DNA from: Eledone cirrhosa
Lineage: Eukaryota
Reading direction: 5' to 3'
Length of the DNA: 64,000 nt
NCBI GenBank assembly: GCA_964016885.1
Contig: CAXHJY010001486.1
Coordinates: forward strand, 14,550-78,549
Each line of letters starts with the position of its first letter. Within the stretch, counting starts at the first letter, position 1. The notes under the pieces are model-generated. The model saw nothing but the letters and a program-made list of their open reading frames with translations, had not been told where the DNA came from and ran no database searches. Positions 13,230 through 13,285 of this stretch are shown piece by piece. Both the position numbers and the translations under genes were made by a program.

Positions 13230-13285
13230 CTTTTAGTTAAATCTTCGAAACCACAGGTGGTCTAAAAGCTGATGAGAGATTTTAA
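13230..13285 (+). ncRNA. Candidate type II hammerhead with minimal stem I and possible pseudoknot
   Basis: ctttta-g-ttaaatcttc-GAAA-CCAC-AG-GTGG-TC-taaaag-CTGATGA-gagattttaa; stems II and III pair, and TAAAAG is complementary to upstream CTTTTA. Confidence 0.55.

Follow-up and report, generated by a model that had tools for sequence, protein, structure and literature searches.

The motif at positions 13230-13285 of the Eledone cirrhosa window (the whole 64,000-nucleotide stretch analyzed here) raises the question of which kind of hammerhead ribozyme, if any, it represents and what element carries it. The preliminary description had read it as an atypical type II hammerhead with a one-base-pair stem I and a possible pseudoknot, inside an unannotated element of about 500 bp (~12950-13450). 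We hold with good confidence that the motif is a decayed copy of a multi-copy repeat whose blocks run in the order S-G-C, that this repeat is predicted to self-cleave when intact, and that it likely forms the 3' terminus of a Penelope-like retroelement of the Naiad type.

In the window copy, the core elements are CTTTTA (13230-35), GAAA (13247-50), GTC (13260-62), TAAAAG (13263-68), and CTGATGA (13269-75), and the core nucleotides earlier listed in type II order are present at 13247-13275. The complementarity noted between CTTTTA and TAAAAG is real but had been understated: it covers 7 bp, between CTTTTAG (13230-36) and CTAAAAG (13262-68), and takes in C13262. A stem I hairpin after the GTC at 13260-62 could form one U-G pair followed by A-A, and both bases of that pair lie inside the 7-bp helix; the six-base flank pairing itself leaves no one-base-pair stem, and the nucleotide proposed for cleavage, C13262, is paired. 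The proposed stem III, ACCAC (13250-54) with GTGGT (13257-61), has its five complementary pairs but a 2-nt loop, so that at most four can form in a monomer. Stem II (13237-46 with 13276-85) consists of nine pairs with one bulge on each side. A dimeric type I model was rejected because the strand that follows GUC and the one that precedes CUGA consist of the same six bases, which rules out pairing between them; tandem units each carrying a type I hammerhead, as in a non-LTR retrozyme, were not found either, the motif being a single copy in the window with no type I match.

The genomic context of the motif was assessed by aligning four sequencing runs (X1-X4) to the window at 80% likeness. The runs listed comprised three contig sets from a single sample and, for the same species, three RAD-seq runs; none was an RNA run, which carries no information about expression. 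X1-X3 are one sample, which may be the source of the window itself, and the depths obtained do not equal copy number. The earlier view of a hammerhead core of rare topology inside a repeat held: 143-154 contigs per genomic run stack on the motif, with 154, 143, and 149 contigs plus 25 reads on 13215-13300 in the four runs. Summed depth reached 1,265-1,480 over 13249-65 but did not exceed 107 over 13300-450 or 12 anywhere upstream of 13215. Because depth peaks at 13249-65, what is conserved in this multi-copy repeat is the hammerhead. Related contigs span 13215-13430, so a repeat does occupy that part of the element proposed earlier, but the interval 12960-13157 looks single-copy because of the low depth upstream of 13215. 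Between the two lies a 30-bp inverted duplication, 80% complementary (13158-13217; 13158-87 with 13188-217), which is likely the 5' junction of an insertion. The depth profile, together with joints to 13377-80, points to a candidate 5'-truncated 3' end of a Penelope-like element at 13188-13450 on the forward strand, up to a (TA)n/(GT)n tract, an identity that we infer.

Variation among the copies does not follow the type II fold. In X1-X3 pooled, no variant was listed at 13230-41 or 13262-67 (listing threshold 2% or more), and 13262-75 was at least 98% unchanged at each position. G13247 was kept in 91% of depth (A in 9%), and the A's of GAAA were without a listed variant. The strands CUUUUAG and CUAAAAG are thus almost invariant in the copies, so that collecting homologues, as had been suggested, bears out the pairing strands but yields no covariation in stem I inside the family. 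Position 13258, by comparison, carries C in 54% of related depth, and 13259 carries A or T in 35%; the hairpin pairs A13253-U13258 and C13252-G13259 survive in at most 46% and 65% of depth, respectively, and 13260-62 remains at least 97% unchanged. Since 13258 and 13259 vary while stem I and CUGAUGA stay, the hairpin stem III is not the conserved feature, and the type II topology fails among the copies. In the strand after A9, G13276 had no listed variant and 13277, 13279, and 13280 were changed in 64%, 87%, and 96% of depth, leaving most copies with only C13246-G13276 and the distal UUAAAU/AUUUAA helix of stem II. The middle of stem II in most copies may pair with an upstream ACGA/AUGA strand.

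The sequence just upstream of the motif in other copies was read from loose-end consensus rows, of which 22 of 172 were listed, 11 of them upstream, with an agreement within rows of only 0.58-0.91. The four listed rows at 13230, built from 33 contigs and 4 reads, all terminate in TGGTC where the window reads TTGTA, and all four listed at 13227 have G at 13226; the table of other letters holds neither 13226 nor 13229, so the TGGTC finding is that of the loose ends. TGGTC provides a strand that can pair with ACCAC and places a GUC site immediately ahead of CTTTTAG, which gives the family a stem III of 4-5 bp as read from loose ends only. All 11 listed upstream rows carry a strand that pairs over 6-7 bp with the linker at 13255-61, in three versions (GCCGTCT in 6, GCCATCT in 4, and GCTGTCT in 1) that correspond to the three common versions of the linker. 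In run X4, both upstream rows read ATGA and A occupies 13244 in 10 of 17 reads, versus mostly G at 13244 in X1-X3, where ACGA is found in 5 of 9 upstream rows; such variation points to an upstream strand as the partner of the central part of stem II. In 4 of the 11 upstream rows the reading is ACAA, at the cost of one pair in the upstream stem II proposed here. Linkage between upstream and linker changes comes from counts and not from whole copies, and the 'compensatory' changes within the family are all CpG transitions, which decay alone can yield.

Taken in this arrangement, the block order is S-G-C, a non-circular permutation in the sense of Eckert et al. (2023; PMC10085705). On the forward strand, block S (13224-13229) comprises a stem III strand and the cleavage triplet, GUA in the window copy, as placed by the pairing list and the loose ends; it is followed by the S side of stem I, CUUUUAG (13230-13236, seven Watson-Crick pairs with 13262-68), the G side of stem II (13237-13246, paired with 13276-85 in the window copy), block G with the GAAA core and the stem III strand ACCAC (13247-13254), a linker (13255-13261), block C with the stem I partner CUAAAAG and the CUGAUGA core (13262-13275), and the strand after A9 (13276-13285). 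The CUUUUAG/CUAAAAG helix, described earlier as a pseudoknot, can accordingly be read as the 7-bp stem I of a non-circularly permuted hammerhead, because the UGGUC loose ends put the stem III strand and GUC just before CUUUUAG. The window copy has the full core in this order, with UH at 13228-29, GAAA at 13247-50, and CUGANGA at 13269-75. Its stem I of 7 bp lies within the 4-7 bp of type SGC, and a stem II strand of at least 2 bp follows CUGANGA directly; in 64% of related depth, the second of these pairs is U-U instead.

The window copy itself is of a minority type (T13244 in 6% and T13280 in 4% of related depth), with a direct 9-bp stem II and a GUA site. T13226 introduces a C-U mismatch, leaving four of five stem III pairs, and the upstream partner strand of the linker has decayed. 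By duplex energies (-5.2 versus -0.5 kcal/mol), the hairpin made by fold-back of the linker on ACCAC is the stronger stem III in the window copy. Given the stem III mismatch, the lost clamp partner, and the competing hairpin, the window copy is probably inactive; its type II look would arise because the decayed upstream partner lets the linker fold back on ACCAC.

Descriptor and folding tests of the window copy gave mixed results. Across both strands of 1,000 dinucleotide shuffles (2,000 strands), the type II descriptor matched once. The window copy fails the published SGC descriptor in its strict form but fits it with one mismatch allowed, a setting at which 0 of the 2,000 shuffled strands matched. 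On a looser four-helix score the window copy reached 17 pairs, equalled by 77 of 1,500 shuffles, and its folding energy was no better than that of shuffles (z = +1.27); standard folding cannot represent pseudoknotted forms, which makes the folding tests weak. Rfam searches of the window and of both ribozyme loci returned no hammerhead match at the gathering score or at E values up to 10. The 13230-family pattern had 0 matches in viral contigs and 17 in metagenomes, all 17 of which were, on reading, without the upstream stem I partner and were taken as chance. A type II pattern with six bases from site to core matched at least 120 loci in viral contigs (~420 estimated), of which 52 passed a minimal pairing filter; on reading, none of the 52 had the look of a full hammerhead.

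A scan for all six block orders gave two matches in the window, both SGC; in shuffles, this loose scan gave at least one SGC match in 67 of 600 and two in 4 of 600. The second reverse-order hammerhead lies on the reverse strand at 9138-9038 and is unrelated in sequence to the 13230 family. It has four complete 6-bp helices, with sequences unlike those of the 13230 family: stem II (9113-08/9082-77), the helix joining stems I and II (9107-02/9062-57), stem III (9099-94/9073-68), and stem I (9092-87/9055-50). The core is formed by UH at 9094-93, GAAA at 9076-73, and CUGAUGA at 9049-43, with the site at A9093, after which the predicted cut would fall. The strand for stem II is located upstream, immediately ahead of that for the linker helix, so that the chain opens in the core after A9; only one G-U follows CUGANGA directly, and the 6-bp stem II comes from the upstream strand. 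The bases after A9 pair further upstream over 5 bp (9138-34/9042-38), across an 8-bp hairpin that stands just before the stem II strand, and both this hairpin and the post-A9 helix are present in Naiad records too. G9042 could also pair with U9077, leaving alternatives for the swap point. A descriptor of the split layout gave 7 matches in 9,443 block-shuffled windows; the layout was taken from Naiad records read beforehand, and the descriptor thresholds were set after the second copy had been seen. The ribozyme sits in a 510-bp unit (8973-9535, reverse strand) with a pyrimidine-rich body, a 53-bp direct repeat at both ends, and (TA)n on both sides. By these predicted pairings, the second copy is the best candidate in the window for self-cleavage.

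Both copies were compared with known hammerheads. Passages of Eckert et al. (2023; PMC10085705) describe SGC motifs from metatranscriptomes, none of them from the genome of a known organism, the sole known-genome exception being one weak bacterial GCS case; block C was assumed there to be uninterrupted. RNAs of types SGC and CSG cut in vitro, and a clamp helix was required in SGC-3 (PMC10085705). The window families resemble the type SGC of these passages (HRIMA-1 and the SGC variants) in the S-G-C order, the full core, a stem I strand close to the stem II strand, and a helix involving the linker immediately 5' of stem I. They differ in that the published clamp helix joins the linker to the 3' tail, whereas in the window copies the linker pairs with the 5' flank, and in that their stem II partner is partly or wholly upstream, against an uninterrupted block C. 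The block C motif of the 13230 family is absent from the portion of the Eckert et al. (2023; PMC10085705) supplement covered here. Type CSG, represented in PMC10085705 by two metagenomic DNA sequences, shares the cyclic order with the split form; the latter is, however, opened after A9 and type CSG before stem I.

Other classes are more distant. The type II (GSC) hammerheads with a pseudoknot (PMC3088659; Rfam models) share with the 13230 motif a short proximal stem II and, in the window copy only, the core order, but those described in passages of PMC3088659 are mostly prokaryotic, have a real stem I hairpin, and pair the pseudoknot with the 3' tail and not with the 5' flank. For the variant with a one-base-pair stem I mentioned in the preliminary description, no published description was found. 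Other Penelope-like clades carry type I hammerheads (PMC4209133), and those of Penelope/Poseidon, Neptune, Hydra pLTRs, and non-LTR retrozymes (PMC4209133; 10.64898/2026.07.22.740005) are similar in being terminal-repeat hammerheads with many dispersed truncated copies. Those have a tiny palindromic stem III and depend on dimers (PMC4209133, PMC6765202), in contrast to the stem III of 5-6 bp between distant strands proposed here. In a literature mostly without subscription papers, we found no publication describing non-circular hammerheads from animals, Penelope-like elements, or Naiads, nor one describing a hammerhead core opened after A9; the passages of 10.64898/2026.07.22.740005, PMC13725137, PMC10162972, PMC5737381, and PMC3088659 included in that literature report no such hammerhead.

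The window copies were also compared with the Naiads, for which Craig et al. (2021; PMC8557442) reported no canonical hammerheads but only 'cores' and 'half cores', along with (TA)n insertion and inverted junctions. By-eye reading of File S5 of that paper, with pairings not computed, revealed reverse-order hammerheads in 16 of 54 Naiad consensuses, several of them not flagged by the authors in the parts of PMC8557442 covered; this count is a lower bound, as most other records were covered by motif searches only. Eight consensuses, again by eye, have a plain CSG order, their stems being 4-12 bp and their clamp helices 8-16 bp long (Naiad-1, -2, and -3_Nbra identified by header and five by file part alone). 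The other eight have the split form (Amil, Aacu, Anas, Obim, Ovul, and Esco by name and two by file part), with some defects: Aacu is mismatched in stems I and II, Esco has four of five stem II pairs, and the part 8 record has a 2-bp stem I. In the Acropora records and in two unnamed split-form records, a base other than G follows A9, and therefore G10.1 must come from upstream in these. Stem sequences are wholly different between Naiad lineages, and therefore CpG decay is no explanation for them. The Omin, Adux, and 1_Skow records, read by eye to the 3' end, showed no motif.

The window copies share with the Naiads of PMC8557442 a 3'-terminal position, (TA)n flanks, an inverted junction, and, by eye, the ribozyme layout of the Acropora, Octopus, and Euprymna consensuses. 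The assignment of the 13230 family to a Naiad end was made mainly on the spacing it has in common with Naiad_Esco and on two short motifs found in both (GAGCCAT and TTAAATC); the (TA)n flanks and the inverted 5' junction of the insertion also fit Naiad insertions. These sequence features make a Naiad-type Penelope-like retroelement the likely source of the 13230 repeat, as its 3' end. Against the likeness stand the report of no canonical hammerhead in the Naiad paper (PMC8557442) and the window copies being linked to no Naiad frame. We further consider it probable, though with slightly less confidence than our reading of the 13230 motif, that many Naiads carry hammerheads that were overlooked through the reversed block order, in the CSG form in nematodes and with the opening after A9 in corals and cephalopods.

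The window is microsatellite-rich DNA, of which tandem repeat finding masks 53%, and contains retroelement scraps and a zinc-finger-like frame. No Naiad reading frame (N-terminal GIY-YIG, CxC, RT) was linked to either ribozyme copy, with no GIY-YIG or RT core match in the 117 of 133 listed frames that were scanned; the 16 frames omitted are repeats of a 466-bp tandem. This tandem (447-2865, 5.2 copies, 99% identity) is followed by an inverted partial copy at 2866-3207; it contains CTGATGA, and a hammerhead was not found there. Matches were obtained to a C2H2 zinc finger (4891-5061, reverse strand, E 6e-5) and to zf-RVT (52234-52833, forward strand, E 1.4e-5), and a 274-aa frame at 10222-11043 (reverse strand), without a Pfam match, presumably resembles a LINE end; all three are probably retroelement remnants. 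A coding exon at the 13230 motif was not found on either strand, where there are short frames only; splice-like sites occur nearby, TTTTAG at 13236 and GAG/GTAAAT near 13381. Further repeats include a pair of ~200-bp inverted repeats at 4040-4450, a 486-bp tandem unit present twice with 89% identity at 27920-28930, and a direct repeat of ~115 bp (8150-8290 and 8790-8905) flanking a 740-bp island between (TA)n tracts, which may be another element end. Another repeat family occupies seven loci (12070-12262, 17866-18054, 31338-31531, 38514-38708, 39753-39894, 57880-58202, and 59777-59889), mostly as inverted pairs adjoining (TA)n, where a GCCG-TCGAAA-CGGC hairpin marks the point of inversion; the family looks like truncated Penelope-like ends, and no CUGANGA core was seen in it. 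The 5' splice-site-like motif ATACTTGAGGTA is common to the ribozyme element (13372-13386) and this inverted-pair family (12124-12135).

Four other explanations were weighed against a reverse-order hammerhead at a Naiad end. The same ribozyme might reside in a non-autonomous unit or belong to a Penelope-like clade other than the Naiads. The lack of a linked reading frame favors such a carrier, as does the 510-bp unit around the second ribozyme, whose 53-bp terminal direct repeat would fit copying from circular or tandem RNA; yet published Naiad 3' ends have the same layout and common short motifs, the other Penelope clades have type I hammerheads, and the ribozymes form no tandem array in the window, so that we regard this carrier as unlikely. 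Somewhat less likely still is a hammerhead-derived fold that now serves as a protein-bound structure or an RNA end signal and no longer cuts itself. In an Anolis Penelope element, the hammerhead cuts only with the help of protein, and insertion in vitro can do without the hammerhead (PMC11167929), G13247 is replaced by A in part of the depth, and the opening after A9 is only predicted to permit cleavage. All catalytic positions are nevertheless kept across unrelated stems in the two window families and 16 Naiad records, and type SGC and CSG RNAs do cut in vitro (PMC10085705).

The type II hammerhead originally proposed, cutting after the GUC ending at 13262, with stem I reduced to one U-G pair and the 5' flank engaged in a pseudoknot, draws on the G-S-C order of the core bases in the window copy, on the stronger hairpin available there as stem III, and on the constancy of 13260-62. 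It is very improbable, since that constancy is accounted for by the linker helix and stem I, most copies have broken hairpin pairs, the six-base pairing consumes both bases of the one-base-pair stem and pairs C13262, and the model has neither an Rfam match nor a counterpart found in print. A chance match to the hammerhead core in an ordinary repeat would agree with the weak showing of the window copy on the loose score and folding energy, but the conservation peak on the core and stem I, the second full example, and the recurrence of the layout in published consensuses make it scarcely credible.

Under the preferred reading, a reverse-order hammerhead at a Naiad-type end, intact copies of the 13230 family are predicted to cleave themselves at 13229/13230, directly before CUUUUAG, with a stem III and linker helix derived from loose-end consensus lines and not from whole copies. 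The upstream strand would give part or all of stem II and then the helix clamping stems I and II, the linker partner 5' of block S forming the 6-7 bp of that clamp. Hammerhead cleavage proceeds by in-line attack 3' of residue 17 (PMC6155905), and standard chemistry would apply here, with G12 as the base, the G8 2'-OH as the acid, and 2',3'-cyclic phosphate and 5'-OH ends. Both cleavage products would remain joined by three helices, and a monomer would suffice for cutting, unlike the minimal type I forms of other Penelope clades. The most likely role would be the cutting of element RNA from tandem or read-through transcripts at the pseudo-LTR. In the Anolis Penelope element, hammerhead cleavage needed added protein and was dispensable for insertion in vitro (PMC11167929), a result that by analogy would count against a required role for the predicted hammerhead.

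The single window copy is a relic; the finding is the family and its link to the Naiads. The first demonstration that a natural RNA can be non-circularly permuted dates from 2023 and drew on environmental sequences (PMC10085705), and the success of Naiads without canonical hammerheads has been taken to suggest that hammerheads may merely parasitize Penelope-like elements (PMC8557442). If Naiads do carry reverse-order hammerheads, non-circular permutation would be a common genomic form in several animal phyla and not an environmental rarity, and the opening after A9, if true, would mean that the 'six possible orders' of blocks are not the full list. Should the predicted folds cut, the argument for hammerheads as parasites would weaken, the published CSG pair would gain a likely home, thousands of genomic copies would be open to tests of covariation and selection, and the core opened after A9 would constitute a new wiring of a natural ribozyme.
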